This document shows positions 265 to 7,017 of a stretch of 7,017 bases of DNA, one piece after another (position 1 is the stretch's first letter; every line of letters begins with the position of its first letter). Both the position numbers and the translations under genes were made by a program. The DNA comes from Escherichia coli (lineage in GTDB: Bacteria > Pseudomonadota > Gammaproteobacteria > Enterobacterales > Enterobacteriaceae). The DNA is taken from assembly GCF_003334385.1 (NCBI RefSeq), contig NZ_QOWN01000074.1; one strand, 5' to 3'. A model generated the notes under the pieces. The model did no database searches. It saw only the letters and a list, made by a program, of their open reading frames with translations, and was not told the DNA's origin.

Positions 265-753
265 TTACCAGTTGAAAGTGGGTAAACCCGGCAGGCATTC
301 AGCGCTGGCATCCAGATGAATGAGACTGACGCCATAACGTCGGGTAAGTGTGATAACCAGACGACGGAACGTTTTTGACAGCCCCAGGCGTTTAAGCCGC
401 AGAACCGGATATGACCACGCATCGGTACGTAACAGATATCCGCTACCTGTGAAATGAATCCATTCTGATTCACCAACGTCACTGGTCTGATGCGACAGCG
501 AGTACAGCCAGGCGTTATCCTTTTCCGTGATATGTGCGGTACTGCAGCGTATGCCGGCAAGGGTTGCAAACGGTGGTAGTGTGCAGGTTGACTGTTGGTC
601 GGATTCCTCCACCACGCGGAGTGAATAACCGTTTTCAGCGACCTTGTTAATCAGTTCAGTGAGATTAACACCATCGACGTCAACGACAATTCGCCCCATG
701 TTCAGTGCCTGCACATTAATTCTGTCGGCTTCCAGCATCAGGGAAAGTTTCAT
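265..753 (-). CDS. DUF5983-like hypothetical protein (162 aa), encoded immediately downstream of the CbtA-family toxin
   Basis: Track ORF 265..753 (-), [29 protein letters not shown]... Its ATG (751-753) overlaps the toxin stop TGA (750-752) as ATGA, implying translational coupling. Position and size match the gene usually following cbtA paralogs. Family name is from memory. Confidence 0.75.
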
Positions 754-1124
754 CGTTTCTCCGGATGCTTACCCAGGGTAATGTTATTTACCGTTCTGTA
801 ATTGTCGCGGGTCATCAGGCCGGTCGCCCGGCGAGCCCGGAGGATATCAATACTGTTTATTAACTGAGAGCGGGGACAAGTGCTGAATCCCGGCTGGTCG
901 GTACGCACCAGCGCGTATTTTTCCACGAGAAAATTCACCGCATCACACAGTGAAATGCCAGCTTCAATATGCTGCTCAATCACACGTTCATCGGCGAACG
1001 GTGTGTCATTCAGTGTAAGGCCGTAATGCTGGCCCAGTAGTCGGGAGAGCAGAGTCTGCCAGATGGTGACGGGAGACGGGCAGCTCGATGCCTCCCGTAC
1101 GTGTGTATCGGGTAATGTTTTCAT
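750..1124 (-). CDS. cbtA: CbtA-family toxin (YeeV/YkfI/YpjF paralog group; type IV TA toxin that inhibits FtsZ/MreB polymerisation), 124 aa
   Basis: Track ORF 750..1124 (-). Protein MKTLP...[64 protein letters not shown]...[17 protein letters not shown] is near-identical over most of its length to E. coli K-12 YeeV/CbtA as I recall it. Shine-Dalgarno-like AGGAAA about 11 nt upstream of the ATG. I cannot tell which paralog it is, so the symbol is a family-level label. Confidence 0.92.
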
Positions 1125-1213
1125 ACTGAAGGTTTTCCTGATATGCAGAGATGAAAAATGGAAAAGTGGCGTGGTGAAAGCACCAGGCCGGAGCAGAAGG
1201 TTATTCCGGTGGT

Positions 1214-1582
1214 TTACTTTTTCGTTTCGGGCGTCGGATAAACAGCCAGATAAACGTAACCACCGCTACCGAGAGTGTCAGCTTTGCAGGTCAGACCTTT
1301 TGCATACAGCGTGACGGTATGCTGATGGCGGGGATTCAGTTCACCGCTGGTGAGCATGAGTTCCAGTTGTTTCATCAGCAGCGGAAAGGCCTGGTCCAGG
1401 TGGTACGCATCTGCATCGCTGAACAGGCCTCTGATACCGGCGCGGTCGGCAAGGTAATGCAGGCGGTTACCCTCCTGCACCAGACGGGCGCCGAAACAGG
1501 GCGTCACTGTGCAGGGTAGTCCCCACCAGGGATGGTCGTCATTGTCATCGGGATGCGTTGTCCCGGAAAGTGTGTCTGACAC
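1214..1582 (-). CDS. cbeA: CbeA-family antitoxin (YeeU/YafW/YfjZ paralog group), 122 aa, GTG start
   Basis: Within track ORF 1214..1690 (-). Sequence from [52 protein letters not shown]...[31 protein letters not shown] matches K-12 YeeU/CbeA as I recall it (K-12 begins MSDTLPGTT). The GTG at 1580-1582 aligns to the K-12 start and has a GAGGA Shine-Dalgarno about 7 nt upstream. The in-frame ATG at 1688-1690 (158-aa form) lacks a convincing RBS. An 89-bp spacer separates it from the toxin gene. Confidence 0.88.
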
Positions 1583-1744
1583 GATAAAATCCTCACAGAA
1601 AATCGGTGAATGATAGTTTAACGATGACGGGTCAGCCGGCGCGCAGACCGGCTTCGGTAAAGGTGTATTCGTTGATGAGCAGGACCTCATCCACAGCGGC
1701 GTCTGAGCTCAGCCAGTCGTACTCGTTTTCCGGGTGACGGAACA

Positions 1745-1966
1745 TCAGTTCAGGGTGACGCTCATCAGCCGGACATACGGACCAAAACTGTCCTTACGGC
1801 GTTCTGCAAACACGGCCAGCACACCGGGAATATCCTGCACTTCACGACCGGTATACGCTTCAGCACTGCCGTGCCAGCGGTATTTGCCGGTACAGAACGG
1901 AAAAAGACGGGATGCCGGATGCTGACGGTGAATACGCATGGCTTCGCCACGGGTGATGATTTTCAT
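1745..1966 (-). CDS. DUF987 small protein (YeeT/YkfH/YpjJ family), 73 aa
   Basis: Track ORF 1745..1966 (-), MKIITRGEAMRIHRQHPASRLFPFCTGKYRWHGSAEAYTGREVQDIPGVLAVFAERRKDSFGPYVRLMSVTLN. Matches my memory of YeeT-type proteins and sits between the radC-like gene and the antitoxin as in K-12 cryptic prophages. AGAGG motif about 10 nt upstream of the ATG. Confidence 0.85.
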   Translation of the reverse strand: MKIITRGEAMRIHRQHPASRLFPFCTGKYRWHGSAEAYTGREVQDIPGVLAVFAERRKDSFGPYVRLMSVTLN

Positions 1967-2028
1967 AGTGGGATACCTCTGAAGACAGAAGATAAAAGTG
2001 AAAACAGGTGTGATGTGGTTGTAACGGG

Positions 2029-2505
2029 TTAAAGCAGACCATGTTCGGCAAAGGAGAAAACCTGGCTGCCACCGATTATCAGATGGTCCGGCACCCGGAT
2101 ATCCACCAGGCCCAGTGCCTGTACCAGACGTTCCGTGATAAGGCGGTCTGCCTTGCTGGGTGTGACTTCACCGGACGGGTGATTGTGTGCCAGCACCACA
2201 GCAGCGGCATTGTGATACAGGGCGCGTTTAATCACTTCCCGGGGATGGACTTCCGTGCGGTTGATGGTGCCGGTGAAGAGGGTTTCACCGGCAATCAGCT
2301 GATTCTGGTTGTTCAGATACAGCACCCGGAACTCTTCACGCTCCAGTCCCGCCATGTTCAGAATCAGCCATTCCCGTGCCGCATGCGTGGAGGTGAAGGC
2401 CACGCCGGGTTCATGAAGATGGCGGTCCAGGGTTTTCAGGGCCCGCTGAATGAGGCTGCGCTCGCCGGGCGTCATGTTTCCGGGCAGAAAGGAAAGCTGT
2501 TGCAT
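2029..2505 (-). CDS. RadC-like JAB/JAMM-domain protein (YeeS/YkfG/YfjY family), 158 aa
   Basis: Track ORF 2029..2520 (-). Contains the JAMM metal-binding signature ...AAVVLAHNHPSGEVTPSKADRLIT... (H-x-H-P-S-G ... D), intact. Start chosen at the second ATG (2503-2505, MQQLSFLPG...) because GGAGA lies about 9 nt upstream and the resulting length matches K-12 paralogs. The first ATG (2518-2520) directly abuts the upstream stop and is an alternative. Confidence 0.88.
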   Translation of the reverse strand: MQQLSFLPGNMTPGERSLIQRALKTLDRHLHEPGVAFTSTHAAREWLILNMAGLEREEFRVLYLNNQNQLIAGETLFTGTINRTEVHPREVIKRALYHNAAAVVLAHNHPSGEVTPSKADRLITERLVQALGLVDIRVPDHLIIGGSQVFSFAEHGLL

Positions 2506-2520
2506 TGTACTTCTCTCCAT

Positions 2521-3006
2521 TCAGTCGATGATGCGCATAATGGCGCTGCATTCCGGATGCTGCAGGGCGTAATCCCGCAGCCGGTAATAATGGACCGTCA
2601 TGGCATAACACTCCGTACGACAGGCATGATGACTGTACGTCATCAGACAGGCAGCAATGCCGGCAGCTTCCGGACTCATTTCAGCGCGGTTACCGTTCAT
2701 GGCATTGAACAGTACCCATGTTTCGTCATCATCGTCATCCGGTTCGGGTGCCATAAATGCCCCGCCGTTGTTCAGGGTGTACAGATTCCAGATACCACCG
2801 CAGTAGTCTTCACACAGACGGTCCATCCAGCCGAAGACACGGGGCTCCAGGGTCACCCACTGTGGAATGAGGCCAAAGTGCTGCGGCCAGAAGCTGATGC
2901 GCTGTTCATCAGGGACTATGGTGGCAACCAACTGAGGCTGGTCATTCCCTGATGCAGCGGTTACGGAAACAGAAGATGTGGTGGAATTATGTGAAATGGT
3001 TTTCAT
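2521..3006 (-). CDS. Antirestriction protein, ArdB/KlcA-like (YfjX/YafX family), 161 aa
   Basis: Track ORF 2521..3006 (-), with AAGGAG Shine-Dalgarno 8 nt upstream of the ATG. Contains an acidic run PEPDDDDDETW and the motif FGWMDRLCEDYCGGIWNLYTLNNGGAFMAPE that I associate with this family. Sits immediately upstream of the radC-like gene, as antirestriction genes do in CP4-type islands. Family call is from memory and gene order. Confidence 0.75.
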   Translation of the reverse strand: MKTISHNSTTSSVSVTAASGNDQPQLVATIVPDEQRISFWPQHFGLIPQWVTLEPRVFGWMDRLCEDYCGGIWNLYTLNNGGAFMAPEPDDDDDETWVLFNAMNGNRAEMSPEAAGIAACLMTYSHHACRTECYAMTVHYYRLRDYALQHPECSAIMRIID

Positions 3007-3060
3007 GAAATGACTCCTTAAAGGACAAATAAATGCGTGGTTTTCAGGGTAATGGCTGAA

Positions 3061-3879
3061 TCAGCGCAGGCTCTCCAGCAGGGTTTCCGCCATCACCCAC
3101 AATGCGCGGTTGAGCTTAATGTCAGTGTCAATGCTGTGAATGGCACGGGTATGGATACGTTTTCCTTTAGCGCTGCGACCTGAAATTCCGCCTTTCAGCA
3201 TATTCTCCTGAATGGTCTGATAAGCACTCCACAGGTCCTTACCGTAATCCTCCCGGCGTCGTGGCGTCAGAATGTCGGCGGTGGTGACGGGCTGATGTTC
3301 GTCACCATAACGGTAAGTCAGTGCCGCCTGTGCCAGCGCCTGGCGTGCCGGTGGCGGCAGAATCAGCGACTGCATGGCATCACGCTTTTCCTCAATCCGG
3401 TCAAACACGCCCACCACCTTGTAAGCCCCTTCAATGACTCTGTCCACCACATTTCCCCGGTGCGGAACACGCACTTCCCCCAGAGACTGACCACAGACGC
3501 ATCCGTTCTGGCAGACGAACCTGAAGTAACCCGGCAGCATCTGGTAGCTGGAGGTACCGTCATGAGAGTTGAGCAGAATAATTTCAGGGACATGTTCTCC
3601 GTTTATCTCTCCGGCCCGCCGCAGACGCAGCATGTGTTTTGTGTATCCCCGGCGGCCCGGGTCGCGCACACGGGTCTGGCAGGCGAAGAATGGCTGAAAG
3701 CCTTCCCGCTGCAGGCTTTCCAGTACGGTGATGGTGGGGATGTACGTATAGTTCTGGCTTCGGGACGTGTGTTTATCTTCCCCGAAAATCCCCGGCACAT
3801 AGTGCATCAGTTCTTCGTGTGTCAGCGGACGGTCACGGCGTATCTGGTTCGCATAACCAAAACGACTGGCTAGTCGCAT
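3061..3879 (-). CDS. DUF932 domain protein (YfjQ/YafZ family), 272 aa
   Basis: Track ORF 3061..3879 (-), MRLASRFGYANQIRRDRPLTHEELMHYVPGIFGEDKH...SHDGTSSYQMLPG...KLNRALWVMAETLLESLR. Closely resembles K-12 YafZ/YfjQ as I recall them. Strong AAGGAG Shine-Dalgarno 5-6 nt upstream of the ATG at 3877-3879. Stop TGA at 3061-3063. Confidence 0.85.
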   Translation of the reverse strand: MRLASRFGYANQIRRDRPLTHEELMHYVPGIFGEDKHTSRSQNYTYIPTITVLESLQREGFQPFFACQTRVRDPGRRGYTKHMLRLRRAGEINGEHVPEIILLNSHDGTSSYQMLPGYFRFVCQNGCVCGQSLGEVRVPHRGNVVDRVIEGAYKVVGVFDRIEEKRDAMQSLILPPPARQALAQAALTYRYGDEHQPVTTADILTPRRREDYGKDLWSAYQTIQENMLKGGISGRSAKGKRIHTRAIHSIDTDIKLNRALWVMAETLLESLR

Positions 3880-3916
3880 AATTTGCTCCTTATCGGTGGT
3901 TAAGATTTACTGGTGT

Positions 3917-3955
3917 AATAAATGAAAAAGCCACGTCTCCCGGAGAAGACGCGGC
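3917..3955 (-). terminator. Rho-independent terminator downstream of the DUF905 gene
   Basis: On the minus strand: GCCGCGTCT-TCTCCGGG-AGACGTGGC (9-bp stem with one G.U pair, plus-strand 3930-3955) followed by TTTTTCATTTATT (plus-strand 3917-3929). Lies in the intergenic region between the DUF905 stop (3979) and the DUF932 start (3879). Confidence 0.6.
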
Positions 3956-3978
3956 CTGATGGGTGAAATGAATGACGT

Positions 3979-4212
3979 TTATTGTCTGAGAAGACCGTCA
4001 CTGGCGAGCCGCGTATTAAGCACCTTTCCGGCATCGGGTTCAGAATTCCGGCAGCGCCAGCGTCGCTGACCTTCCGCGTTGCGGATAACCCGACGGAAAT
4101 GCATTCCCGGGTCATCCTGGATAAACACATTGCGGTAAGCGGTTATGACAGCAACCGCCTGCCCGTATGAGAAAGATCCTTCAGCCAGGACATACTCTGT
4201 GTAACCCGGCAT
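3979..4212 (-). CDS. DUF905-like small protein (YkfF-like), 77 aa
   Basis: Track ORF 3979..4212 (-). Motif [29 protein letters not shown] resembles the conserved core I recall for DUF905 proteins in K-12 cryptic prophages. AGGAG Shine-Dalgarno about 9 nt upstream of the ATG. Flanked by terminators on both sides. Confidence 0.72.
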
Positions 4213-4225
4213 ATCTGTTTTCTCC

Positions 4226-4266
4226 TGATAAATAAAAAGCCTCTGCCACGCGTTGTGACAGAGGCT
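4226..4266 (-). terminator. Rho-independent terminator downstream of the signal-peptide protein gene
   Basis: On the minus strand: AGCCTCTG-t-CAC-aacgc-GTG-g-CAGAGGCT (plus-strand 4238-4266), a GC-rich stem of 8+3 bp, followed by TTTTATTTATCA (plus-strand 4226-4237). Located 25 nt after the stop of the 4291..4746 gene and 25 nt before the DUF905 start. Confidence 0.65.
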
Positions 4267-4290
4267 GAAGCATGAAACTGACTTCAGGGA

Positions 4291-4746
4291 TCAGTTAACG
4301 TTTTTTCCGGAAACGGTAATCAGCAGTGGATGGTAGTCCTGGGGATTGAAAACCGATAACGGCAGACTGACACGATGGCCGTTACTTTCTTCAGTTGCTT
4401 TGATGATTTCGGTTGTGGCGACATTTTCCACGCACTCCGTTTCCAGAAATGCGTCTGTGGTTCGCGTGGCATTACTGTCACCAAAAGCTTCCGTTTCCAT
4501 TTTTCTGGTCACCAGCGTCTGACCATATTTGTCTTTGAGTTGCAGAGTGATGGTGAGGGGGCCAAATCCTTCATCGTTTCCGCCATTATCCAGCCGGAAC
4601 TGGTAAGCACAAATATTTCCCGGGAGCCATATCGTATCTGTATTGCGTATACTGATGTAACGTTGATCCTGTGCCCGGAGTGGGGCAGACCACGTTAACC
4701 CCAGAATGAAGGCGGTAATCATGCAGGTTTTGAACAGGTGAATCAT
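4291..4746 (-). CDS. Small secreted/periplasmic protein of unknown function, 151 aa, with predicted Sec signal peptide
   Basis: Track ORF 4291..4746 (-). N-terminus MIHLFKTCMITAFILGLTWSAPLRA/QDQ has a typical n-h-c signal peptide with an AxA-like cleavage site and no lipobox. Mature part has two Cys (possible disulfide). GAGAGG Shine-Dalgarno about 8 nt upstream of the ATG. Lies 75 bp downstream of the large membrane protein gene with no terminator between them. I recognise no family. Confidence 0.65.
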   Translation of the reverse strand: MIHLFKTCMITAFILGLTWSAPLRAQDQRYISIRNTDTIWLPGNICAYQFRLDNGGNDEGFGPLTITLQLKDKYGQTLVTRKMETEAFGDSNATRTTDAFLETECVENVATTEIIKATEESNGHRVSLPLSVFNPQDYHPLLITVSGKNVN

Positions 4747-4821: not shown

Positions 4822-7017
4822 TTATGCCGGTAACTCCGGGGGTAATGCTTCTTCCAGTCGGTTAACCATATTGCCGAGATGGGATGCATCATATTCCATG
4901 ACGGGGCGTTGCCTGATGATACTGACCACCAGTGGTTTGATTAACATATTGGTCGCGGCCCGTTGTTGTATACCGGCGGCGAAAATGATCTCCAGAGCAT
5001 TCTGATCGATAACACGGGCCAGATTCTCGTTCAGATTTTCAATCTCATGTCCGGTCAGCAGGAAACTGCCGGCAAGCCATGTCACCTGCTCCTGAATCAT
5101 TGCCAGAATTTTGACGCGATCTTCTTCAACCAGCGCTCCGGCAATTTTTCCTGATACAGCGGAGGCAATCATTCCCCCCAGAACACCGCCAACCACACGC
5201 CCTGTCAGTGCACCAAATGGTCCCAGTGGACTGAACAGTATTCCGCCCGCCACTGACCCGACAGCACCACCTGCCACACCGGAAGATGCCACGGCAAGAT
5301 TCCTGATGAACTGCGTACCGGAGATCCGTCCCCGCAACATTTTGATCATGTCAGGGCCGGTTGTGACAGCTACCAGTGCCAGAGATGTCACCAGCGTACC
5401 CTTCATTACTTTGTTCAGGGCACTGATATTTCCTGCACCGTTCCCCTTCTGAAGAGCCAGTCGGACAGTCGGGCTGGCAGTCGAAAAATCAATGTGCTTC
5501 AGCATACCCTGAACAACACTGAGCCGGTGGAGTTGCTGGGTTGTGACGTAGACAGCCAGTGTGCGGGTGAAGGTTTTTCCTGCCTGGACAGCAGCTGTCT
5601 GCAGGGCAGCATCGCGATCGCCGGTGCTGAGCCAGAAGACCGATGCCGTCAGGGCAAAACTGATCCCTCCGGCCGCCAGACTGACAACCGAACCCTCGGC
5701 AATATCATAAGTGACCGATTCGATGGTCCCGAACCGGGTGATATTACGGGCCTGAGTATAAGTCAGATGTCCCCGACGAATCAGCCGGGACGCTTCTGCG
5801 GGATCGGTTACACCGGGTACTTTACCTTCGCGGATCTTATTCCTCATGGTTTCAACAGCGCCGGCATACTGATCACGGGGGACTTCCAGTTGCATGGGGC
5901 CATTATTTCCCATGTAACGATACTGTCCGTTTTGTCCGTCGAATGCCGCACCGACGCTACGGGCTGCAGTTGAACAATATTTCGTCTGGATTTCTGTTCC
6001 GCTGACCAGTCTGTCTGCTCCATTTCTGGCATTATTATCACCGAGGATCCGTGCGTTTTTCAGACGGACTCTGTCGACAATATGGTTTCCCCGTTCAGCG
6101 GCAAACCCATGTCCCTGCCCTCCGGAAGCAAACATTTTCTCATTTGTACTCCAGGTTTCCGGCAGTTTCATGAGAATCAGACCATTCGCCGTTGCATCGG
6201 AAATAAAGCTGTTGTAAGGGCGTTCATAAATTTCCTGACACAGTGTTTCTGTTTCGCGACAAAGAGAGGAGCAGTACCATTCCGGATCCGGCTTATGATT
6301 TTCCGGGGCATGATGTACTTCTGTCAGCCCGCAGGAGGCACAGATACGAAGCTCATCCACGTGATGGAATGATACAAAACGGCGACCTTCTGAAAAGGGA
6401 TACCAGTCACCGCCGTCCAGGCAACGATCGAGAAAATCGTCATTCGCTTCCGGTGATAAATTCAGGCGGTTCCGGAAGAGCGTTTTCAGTTCATCAGGTG
6501 TGAATGACAGGTTCTCTTTCAACTGTTCGTTAAACCCTGCCATGTTTCTTTCATACCAGGCATTGTTCAGTAACCAGTTTCCGTCTGCCAGTTCAAATTC
6601 CCTCAGCTCTCCCCGGGAAATCCGTTGAGAAATGAGCGTCAGCCAGATGCGCTCCGTCAGTGAGTCAGGAAGGCTGTAATCGTTTTGCAAACTGGTCAGC
6701 CACGATTTACTGTTGAGCACCGGTTGTTCTTCCAGTGTCTGGCTGATGGCACAGGTCAGTTTTTTCAGCGCCTGGATCTGGCTGGCCGCCCATAGCAGCG
6801 TCACTAATGCAGCCAGCCAGTACAACAACCCGCCCCACCACATCAGTGACGGTGAAATATCGTACTGTAACGCGATCAATGGTGCGCATGCAGAACACGC
6901 CATAAGGAAAAAGGCAGTATAAAAACAGCAGTAATACCCGTTAATTTCCTTGCTGATATCTTCTGGTGTGATCCCGTTCTGCTGAATGTTTTTGATCTGC
7001 AGGGGAACAGCCAGCAG
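4822..7017 (-). CDS. Large membrane protein of unknown function, 5'-truncated at the window edge (>=731 codons visible)
   Basis: Track ORF 4822..6903 (-) of 693 aa; the same frame stays open from 6904 to 7017 by my manual translation (...LLAVPLQIKNIQQNGITPEDISKEINGYYCCFYTAFFL-MACSAC...), so the true start is outside the window. Predicted N-terminal hydrophobic helices (6772..6843 and upstream). Cys cluster C-x2-C...C-x3-C...C at about 6238..6342. Further hydrophobic segments and a glycine-zipper-rich stretch SGVAGGAVGSVAGGILFSPLGPFGALTGRVVGGVLGGMIASAVSGKIAG at about 5134..5301. Stop TAA at 4822-4824. Occupies the slot held by YeeR/YfjW-type membrane proteins or Ag43 in K-12 islands, but I cannot confirm homology to those. 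Confidence 0.7.
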   Translation of the reverse strand: MLAVPLQIKNIQQNGITPEDISKEINGYYCCFYTAFFLMACSACAPLIALQYDISPSLMWWGGLLYWLAALVTLLWAASQIQALKKLTCAISQTLEEQPVLNSKSWLTSLQNDYSLPDSLTERIWLTLISQRISRGELREFELADGNWLLNNAWYERNMAGFNEQLKENLSFTPDELKTLFRNRLNLSPEANDDFLDRCLDGGDWYPFSEGRRFVSFHHVDELRICASCGLTEVHHAPENHKPDPEWYCSSLCRETETLCQEIYERPYNSFISDATANGLILMKLPETWSTNEKMFASGGQGHGFAAERGNHIVDRVRLKNARILGDNNARNGADRLVSGTEIQTKYCSTAARSVGAAFDGQNGQYRYMGNNGPMQLEVPRDQYAGAVETMRNKIREGKVPGVTDPAEASRLIRRGHLTYTQARNITRFGTIESVTYDIAEGSVVSLAAGGISFALTASVFWLSTGDRDAALQTAAVQAGKTFTRTLAVYVTTQQLHRLSVVQGMLKHIDFSTASPTVRLALQKGNGAGNISALNKVMKGTLVTSLALVAVTTGPDMIKMLRGRISGTQFIRNLAVASSGVAGGAVGSVAGGILFSPLGPFGALTGRVVGGVLGGMIASAVSGKIAGALVEEDRVKILAMIQEQVTWLAGSFLLTGHEIENLNENLARVIDQNALEIIFAAGIQQRAATNMLIKPLVVSIIRQRPVMEYDASHLGNMVNRLEEALPPELPA

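Follow-up and report, generated by a model that had tools for sequence, protein, structure and literature searches.

A predicted treble-clef zinc finger in YeeR, a membrane protein encoded on genomic islands of Escherichia coli

The window analysed here is a stretch of 7,017 nucleotides of Escherichia coli DNA (contig NZ_QOWN01000074.1 of assembly GCF_003334385.1) whose minus strand carries yeeR, a gene whose product has been termed uncharacterised in the operon literature (PMC4807369, PMC9431211). Five cysteines are grouped in a short part of YeeR, and four of them probably form a structural zinc finger that aids the binding of nucleic acids or proteins in a membrane-anchored, nuclease-like effector. 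Following this finger yields a concrete architecture for the protein, in which a cytoplasmic reader is predicted to stand ahead of an invariant D...QxK nuclease-like core that is held at the membrane. The finger adds a member to a well-known class and is, as a module, ordinary; the architecture that surrounds it, i.e., an Mrr-style winged helix and PD-QxK domain interrupted by an FCS finger within a polytopic membrane protein, appears to be new, and literature searches found no description of an architecture of the YeeR type.

The cysteine cluster and its conservation

On the minus strand, positions 6238 to 6342 of the window translate to CASCGLTEVHHAPENHKPDPEWYCSSLCRETETLC, in which the string quoted in a preliminary description of this DNA, FHHVDELRICASCGLTEVHH, is found. 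The spacing reported there, C-x2-C-x19-C-x3-C-x6-C, is reproduced exactly by translation. In the numbering of the full protein of 838 residues these cysteines are C333, C336, C356, C360 and C367 (codons in Table 1); counted from the ATG present in the window, they are residues 188, 191, 211, 215 and 222. This ATG, at 6903, is not the start of the gene: the frame remains open from it to the edge of the window, with no stop in 6904-7017, and the RefSeq coding sequence (CDS; L001:8566-11082, WP_072645707.1), annotated as a hypothetical protein and 99.9% identical to the window at the DNA level, encodes 838 residues. The share of YeeR held by the window is residues 108-838 and the stop codon, the first 107 residues lying outside it, and the mechanically called open reading frame (ORF) of 693 residues, which was the one visible to the preliminary description, begins at the internal Met146. 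The sole amino-acid difference between the YeeR of the window and the RefSeq copy L001 is N633 versus I (window 5005-5007), in the loop predicted between transmembrane segments TM7 and TM8.

YeeR has 13 cysteines in total, five of which fall inside 35 residues. When its sequence was shuffled 20,000 times, at least five cysteines within 35 residues were obtained in 1.1% of the shuffles, and the pattern C..C.{12,26}C...C in 0.045%; the cluster is real and is not an effect of composition.

A homolog search returned 414 proteins from Gamma- and Betaproteobacteria, nearly all of which, like the 99%-identical cluster P0001, have precomputed matches to the Pfam family PF27347 (YeeR_C). Among 39 aligned full-length homologs, whose identity to the query is 29-67%, C333, C336, G337, C356 and C360 are invariant (39/39), C367 is kept in 38 of the 39, and none of the flanking histidines is conserved. 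The wider sample comprised 246 relatives in hand and 1047 relatives retrieved by a profile search of 1.84 billion representatives. Where the module is present among the 246 proteins, the four cysteines are found in 170/170, 169/170, 175/175 and 173/176 cases, respectively, and the fifth in 152 of 177 (about 86%); the invariance of the four-cysteine pattern reaches across Gamma- and Betaproteobacteria and beyond. The homolog alignment that had been proposed as a check on the cysteines thus upholds the first four of them, in the 39 homologs and in some 170 module carriers. It does not uphold the histidines that had been noted as flanking the site, nor a site of five cysteines, given that the fifth is less conserved and is placed two turns further along a predicted helix (see below).

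The loop that joins the two cysteine pairs is variable both in sequence and in length (13-23 residues, mostly 15-19), and the motif of the family can be written as C-x2-C-G-x(12-22)-[Y/F]-C-S-x2-C. Glycine follows the CxxC pair in 167 of 187 fingers, tyrosine or phenylalanine precedes the third cysteine in 174, and serine follows it in 175; the second pair of the window copy, W-Y-C-S-S-L-C, fits the [F/Y]-C-S signature.

Some relatives carry the finger as tandem copies of 32 residues, with eight copies in P0165, eight in P0168, six in P0169 and two in P0216. In these four metagenomic proteins the N-terminal membrane part is missing, the fingers occupy the extreme N-terminus, no signal peptide is present, and the arrays directly precede the same conserved nuclease-like domain that follows the finger in YeeR. 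The T-E-x2-C extension, which contains the fifth cysteine, is found in the arrays solely on the copy that adjoins this conserved domain. Relatives without the finger bear Sel1/TPR repeats, zinc ribbons or other N-termini, and in P0205 the position of the finger is occupied by C-x2-C...C-x2-C. Because some relatives bear six to eight tandem repeats of 32 residues, the finger can be regarded as a self-contained module; judged from these alignments, it is an autonomous, repeatable and portable unit defined by four cysteines.

Predicted fold and relatives of the finger

The soluble region of YeeR was modelled with AlphaFold2 (residues 190-548, alignment of 30 sequences), with a mean per-residue confidence (predicted local distance difference test, pLDDT) of 82.7. 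In the finger, where the pLDDT is 71-91, DSSP assigns residues 330-333 and 339-341 to strands and 358-372 to a helix. In the model a strand runs up to C333 and is followed by the C-A-S-C-G knuckle, the strand that returns from it, a loop and a helix of 15 residues; C356 is placed just ahead of this helix and C360 in its first turn. The model, that is, has a hairpin knuckle at one cysteine pair and a helix at the other.

A profile built from 57 fingers was searched against the sequences of the PDB. The best match was YacG (expectation value, E, 6e-4), with its C9, C12, C28 and C32 on the four cysteines, followed by archaeal L24e (E 0.03), the FCS finger of PHC1 (E 0.044) and that of L3MBTL2 (E 1.1); LIM half-domains were also matched. 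In a direct comparison of the finger with YacG, hhalign gave a probability of 94% over 29 columns. Because the model puts the C-x3-C pair at the N-terminal end of a helix, and because the profile aligns the four cysteines with the zinc ligands of YacG, the topology of the finger is most likely that of a treble clef and not that of a zinc ribbon. The preliminary description had named both folds, with the ribbon in its title, and of these the treble clef is the one favoured here. On the model, C367 lies seven residues, i.e., about two helical turns, past C360 on the same helix, and for this reason it would be too distant to bind the same metal ion.

YacG, the DNA gyrase inhibitor of E. coli (PF03884; PDB 1LV3 and 4TMA), is a treble-clef/FCS finger with one zinc, four cysteines, two short strands, a linker and one helix (PMC4083091), and treble-clef fingers of its class bind nucleic acids or proteins (PMC4083091). 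It shares with the YeeR finger the signature C-x2-C...[F]-C-S-x2-C, and all four cysteines of its single Zn(Cys)4 site align. On the other hand, YacG is a free-standing protein of 65 residues whose C-terminal tail also binds gyrase, whereas in YeeR the finger is one module inside a membrane protein; likewise, the loop of 15 residues of YacG contrasts with the variable loop of the YeeR family, which in addition has the conserved T-E-x2-C extension. The FCS/MYM fingers (zf-FCS, PF06467; PHC1, 2L8E; L3MBTL2, 2W0T) and the TRASH/L24e domains have the same C-x2-C...[F/Y]-C-S-x2-C signature as YeeR, and MYM fingers occur in tandem arrays, as do those of some YeeR relatives. The matches of the profile to FCS and L24e span the whole finger of the family and are weak, and these are mostly eukaryotic or archaeal families, unlike the YeeR finger. 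L24e has been reported to bind Cd2+ through four equivalent cysteines (PMC4626032).

When the 57 fingers were scanned one by one against Pfam, a single one matched YacG at E<=0.001 and none matched zf-FCS at that level (six did so at E<=0.1); four matched Zn_ribbon_RRN7 at E<=0.001, and other zinc-ribbon models were matched weakly, in a minority of members. Because these single-sequence scans are weak, we class the finger as an FCS/YacG-like treble clef and do not place it in any single Pfam family.

Domain layout of YeeR and its nuclease-like domain

Six hydrophobic segments precede the soluble region of YeeR (Kyte-Doolittle). The mean number of lysines and arginines in successive loops, taken over the 39 homologs, alternates (1.8, 0.3, 3.8 and 0.3), and because of this alternation residues 188-548 are predicted to be cytoplasmic. 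The loop ahead of a C-terminal Gly-zipper hairpin is strongly basic (4.15 K+R, 0.15 D+E), and from this the C-terminal tail is likewise predicted to face the cytoplasm. For the cluster, placement in the cytoplasm is compatible with zinc held by thiolates and speaks against disulfides. The predicted order is six transmembrane (TM) segments, two winged helices, the zinc finger, a linker, a PD-(D/E)xK (Mrr-like) fold, a membrane region with the Gly-zipper and, last, a helical tail. The hydropathy and loop-charge profiles agree with the position between N- and C-terminal membrane regions that had been given for the cluster, and with the proposal that it belongs to a soluble module, here predicted as cytoplasmic, with membrane regions on both sides.

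The most conserved part of the family follows the disordered linker and reads GHGFAAE...DN.KNGADR...IQTKY...PMQLEVP.DQY. Modelled alone from 44 diverse sequences (pLDDT 90.3; predicted template-modelling score, pTM, 0.84), this domain has an alpha-beta-beta-beta-alpha-beta core, as in the PD-(D/E)xK superfamily. E415, D442, Q451 and K453 are invariant in all 239-240 proteins that cover them. Mapped by secondary-structure elements, E415 is on the first helix of the model, D442 opens the second strand (model residues 48-50) and Q451-T-K453 lie in the third (53-57), which are the places where the catalytic residues of the superfamily fall; at the equivalent places E. coli Mrr has GIDG...VQAKRW. 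We therefore lean towards a PD-(D/E)xK (Mrr-like) nuclease fold for the modelled domain. This assignment rests on fold and motif because the domain could not be tied to Mrr or to any other nuclease family by sequence or by profile: its 44 members, scanned one at a time, matched no nuclease family of Pfam, a search of the PDB with its profile gave no significant match, and hhalign against E. coli Mrr, either alone or as a profile of 120 sequences, gave a probability below 1% with only IQTK and VQAK aligned, the Mrr profile being shallow (all 120 homologs at least 69% identical). A partial match of the domain to L7Ae in the PDB profile search (E 0.025) was taken as chance.

Mrr-type (Type IV) restriction endonucleases consist of an N-terminal winged helix and a PD-QxK catalytic domain. 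YeeR differs from them: about ten predicted helices embed it in the membrane, a predicted zinc finger separates its winged helices from the catalytic-like domain, and neither its sequence nor its profile is significantly similar to Mrr. With a putative restriction-type nuclease domain alongside the finger, YeeR may be a membrane-anchored nuclease and not a transporter. The preliminary description had favoured a signalling or defence effector over a transporter, which the winged helices, the nuclease-like fold, the Gly-zipper part and the mobile and defence contexts described below support.

The cysteine C455, next to the candidate catalytic K453, is conserved in 200 of 240 proteins. In a finger-less subfamily of 34 proteins, positions 455, 461 and 465 are all cysteines (C-x5-C-x3-C), versus C455, S461 and A465 in the window (5944-5976); this triplet may be a different metal or redox site in the nuclease-like domain. 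A second metal site made of C367, C455 and two further cysteines was considered as a general feature and rejected, given that the relatives with the triplet have, for the most part, neither the finger nor C367.

In every architecture the nuclease-like domain is accompanied by the C-terminal membrane region with its Gly-zipper and by the tail, which may serve as an anchor, as a pore or in oligomerisation. This membrane region gave weak matches to C19orf12 and Gly-zipper families. Scans of full YeeR against Pfam-A, NCBIfam and PHROGs gave nothing useful (C19orf12, E 0.03); a tape-measure match at E 0.0012 arises from a Gly-rich segment, and matches to Hsp70 in a phmmer search of full YeeR against the PDB were set aside as chance. 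PDC-M09B, a PADLOC candidate, matches the YeeR of the window weakly (E 3.5e-6; residues 576-731 in the membrane region). Its hidden Markov model gives weak and consistent matches to the nuclease-like domain and the C-terminal membrane region of YeeR and seven diverse relatives, with E down to 1e-6.

Genomic setting, possible role and alternatives

A match to yeeR is found in 2579 of 5426 complete genomes of E. coli, 1800 of which hold at least 80% of the gene. The annotated gene is flanked by agn43 on one side and a gene of the IrmA family on the other, in an island like CP4-44/CP4-57 that also includes DUF905, DUF932, antirestriction, RadC/JAB, DUF987, CbeA/CbtA and DUF5983 genes. The gene is very common in the pathogenicity and CP4-type islands of E. 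coli; of its neighbours, Ag43 is an adhesin and IrmA an immune-mimic. In strain EC958, agn43, yeeR and irmA form one transcript that is repressed by OxyR (PMC4807369), and the K-12 copy of yeeR is truncated, disrupted by a deletion (PMC4807369). The profile, 358 positions long, matches P0152, a relative of 510 residues, as far as position 292, within the nuclease-like domain, and this relative has none of the C-terminal membrane part; this is consistent with the published disruption of yeeR in K-12 (PMC4807369).

Outside E. coli, eight homolog loci were examined, which together with the E. coli island make nine contexts, a small sample. One homolog adjoins HicAB, a TIR protein and IS66; another, RES-Xre; a third, HepT/MNT pairs, IS21 and an integrase; a fourth, a CBASS operon, an antirestriction gene and an integrase; and a fifth, an integrase and PLD/DUF6361 genes. 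The gene for P0165 (L007:8001-10187) stands just after that of an MmeI/Eco57I-type methylase of 1187 residues and ahead of a Fic gene, and in Serratia the homolog shares a CP4-like island with IrmA. The eight loci have no conserved partner gene in common. Taken together, the contexts point to mobile elements and defence islands, the family keeping company with toxin-antitoxin, CBASS and restriction genes. The homologs of Alcaligenes (L010), Deefgea (L009), Methylomonas (L002) and Herbaspirillum (L012) are on integrase-bounded elements, in the company of recognised defence or toxin-antitoxin modules: CBASS with a Saf_2TM-SAVED effector, HepT/MNT pairs, HicAB with a CAP12-type TIR, and PLD/DUF6361.

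We propose that one structural Zn2+ would be bound by C333 and C336 in the knuckle of the hairpin and by C356 and C360 where the helix begins; C367 and the flanking histidines would take no part in this. The finger and the winged helices would make up the recognition part of the protein, for nucleic acid or possibly for a protein partner, because relatives place one to eight copies of the finger directly before the same nuclease-like domain, and because in YeeR the finger stands amid the winged helices and the nuclease-like core. This arm may position, present or license the substrate for the adjacent PD-(D/E)xK-like domain, with the whole assembly kept at the inner face of the membrane, and the output could be the cutting of incoming DNA or of RNA, or damage to the membrane by the Gly-zipper part. 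YeeR would thereby act as a membrane-anchored conflict or defence protein carried on integrative islands. The sequence, its conservation and modularity, and the similarity of the profile to YacG/FCS fingers are observed here, and the folds and the membrane topology are predictions; that the finger binds zinc, what it recognises, that YeeR is a nuclease and that it serves in defence are what we infer from these features.

Several observations weigh against this proposal. The finger of the window itself matches no Pfam family even at E<=10, and other members match zf-FCS and YacG weakly; a passage in PMC12383448 indicates that structure predictors can produce confident zinc-finger-like folds. 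One of the eight contexts outside E. coli is an apparently ordinary chromosome. PDC-M09B, the sole PADLOC match of YeeR, is an unvalidated candidate system that comes with no description, and none of the PADLOC models, the PDC-M09 partner included, matched the ten neighbouring proteins of the window.

The four cysteines could otherwise belong to a metal sensor of the TRASH type, reversibly binding Cu, Cd, Hg or excess Zn and so switching the adjacent domain or the membrane part. The TRASH domain was reportedly defined by Ettema in 2003 as C-x2-C-x19-22-C-x3-C, and the x19 of the window agrees with this spacing. L24e, a single TRASH domain, is among the matches of the finger profile, and YHS/TRASH domains have been proposed or shown to be metal sensors (PMC4626032). 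The spacing that prevails in the family is 15-19, however; with its [Y/F]-C-S signature and its arrays, which reach eight copies, the family resembles FCS/MYM fingers of the interaction type and not sensors, and YacG, the best match, is a protein-binding finger. Moreover, TRASH domains are tied to metal-handling genes, and no metal-resistance or metal-trafficking gene was seen in the nine contexts, so that a sensor of this kind seems unlikely. A redox switch, in which the Zn(Cys)4 site, perhaps with C367 and C455, would lose its zinc and form disulfides under oxidative stress and in this way regulate YeeR, could be suspected from the repression of the agn43-yeeR-irmA transcript by OxyR (PMC4807369) and from the good conservation of both additional cysteines; but the control of agn43 by OxyR has been described within Dam-dependent phase variation and not as a stress response (PMC9431211, PMC4807369), and in the finger-less subfamily C455 is part of the C-x5-C-x3-C triplet and hence is not tied to C367, which leaves such a switch with a low probability.

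A classical zinc ribbon, built of two beta-hairpin knuckles, would account for the minority of members that match Zn_ribbon_RRN7 or, weakly, other ribbon models, and for the two C-x2-C pairs of P0205. It is nevertheless very improbable for the YeeR finger, whose second pair is C-x3-C and is predicted to open a helix, and whose alignments with YacG, L24e and FCS fingers take in all four cysteines. Hardly any credence can be given to the idea that there is no metal site at all, the cysteines being either a chance cluster or the partners of disulfides in a periplasmic loop: against chance stand the rarity of the pattern among the shuffles and its invariance over Gamma- and Betaproteobacteria and beyond, and against a periplasmic loop stand the predicted cytoplasmic location, the relatives whose finger is at the extreme N-terminus with neither signal peptide nor membrane segment, and the flanking winged-helix and nuclease-like folds, which are kinds of domain found in the cytoplasm.

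If a cytoplasmic reader ahead of a nuclease-like core held at the membrane is the correct reading, a family of membrane-anchored nucleases would be added to the bacterial conflict systems, and a very common island gene of E. coli would gain a function; searches of the literature that joined YeeR to defence, nuclease or phage, or that used PF27347 or PDC-M09, found nothing on its function. A bolder proposal, which we consider possible though rather doubtful, is that YeeR and about 1000 representative relatives constitute a new class of Mrr-like (Type IV-style) nucleases that are embedded in the membrane and consist of a single protein. Their reader modules in the cytoplasm would be interchangeable (two winged helices and an FCS finger here; arrays of up to eight fingers, Sel1/TPR repeats or zinc ribbons elsewhere); at the inner membrane these modules would detect invading nucleic acid and trigger cleavage and/or Gly-zipper membrane damage. 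In E. coli, YeeR would then be an island defence or exclusion factor, possibly phase-variable with Ag43 where yeeR is co-transcribed with agn43, as in EC958.

Table 1. Coordinates of the features of YeeR and of the neighbouring genes in the window
Feature	Window position	Strand	Residues, basis or remark
yeeR-like CDS	4822..7017	-	open frame; inner-membrane protein, 99.9% identity to annotated CDSs
TM5-TM6 (predicted), last of the N-terminal six-helix bundle	6778..6936	-	residues 135-187; hydropathy, loop charges
Two tandem winged-helix domains (predicted)	6364..6771	-	residues 190-325
FCS/YacG-type treble-clef zinc finger (predicted)	6223..6354	-	residues 329-372; invariant Cys, [Y/F]-C-S, repeats, AlphaFold2, YacG/L24e/FCS profile matches
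Predicted zinc ligands	C333 6340-6342; C336 6331-6333; C356 6271-6273; C360 6259-6261	-	fifth cysteine, C367, at 6238-6240
Low-confidence linker	6118..6222	-	residues 373-407; pLDDT <50 at 386-407 (model residues 197-218)
PD-(D/E)xK (Mrr-like) domain (predicted)	5695..6117	-	residues 408-548; alpha/beta
Candidate active-site residues	E415 6094-6096; D442 6013-6015; Q451 5986-5988; K453 5980-5982; E485 5884-5886	-	motif and predicted fold
C-terminal membrane region	5140..5694	-	residues 549-733; about four hydrophobic segments, including the Gly-zipper hairpin; hydropathy
C-terminal soluble tail, probably helical	4825..5139	-	residues 734-838; conserved columns, acidic, predicted cytoplasmic
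IrmA family	4291-4746	-	island gene
DUF905	3979-4212	-	island gene
DUF932	3061-3879	-	island gene
Antirestriction	2521-3006	-	island gene
RadC/JAB	2029-2520	-	island gene
DUF987	1745-1966	-	island gene
CbeA	inside ORF 1214-1690	-	island gene
CbtA	750-1124	-	island gene
DUF5983	265-753	-	island gene

The remainder of the window, from 265 to 4746, is an ordinary island segment of the CP4-44/CP4-57 type (Table 1). No match to Rfam was found anywhere in the window. The stop of cbtA and the start of the DUF5983 gene overlap by four bases (750-753). The annotated CbeA gene has 369 nucleotides versus 477 in the mechanical ORF that encloses it, and the annotated JAB/RadC gene has 477 versus 492; the true starts of both genes are probably internal to the longer ORFs.

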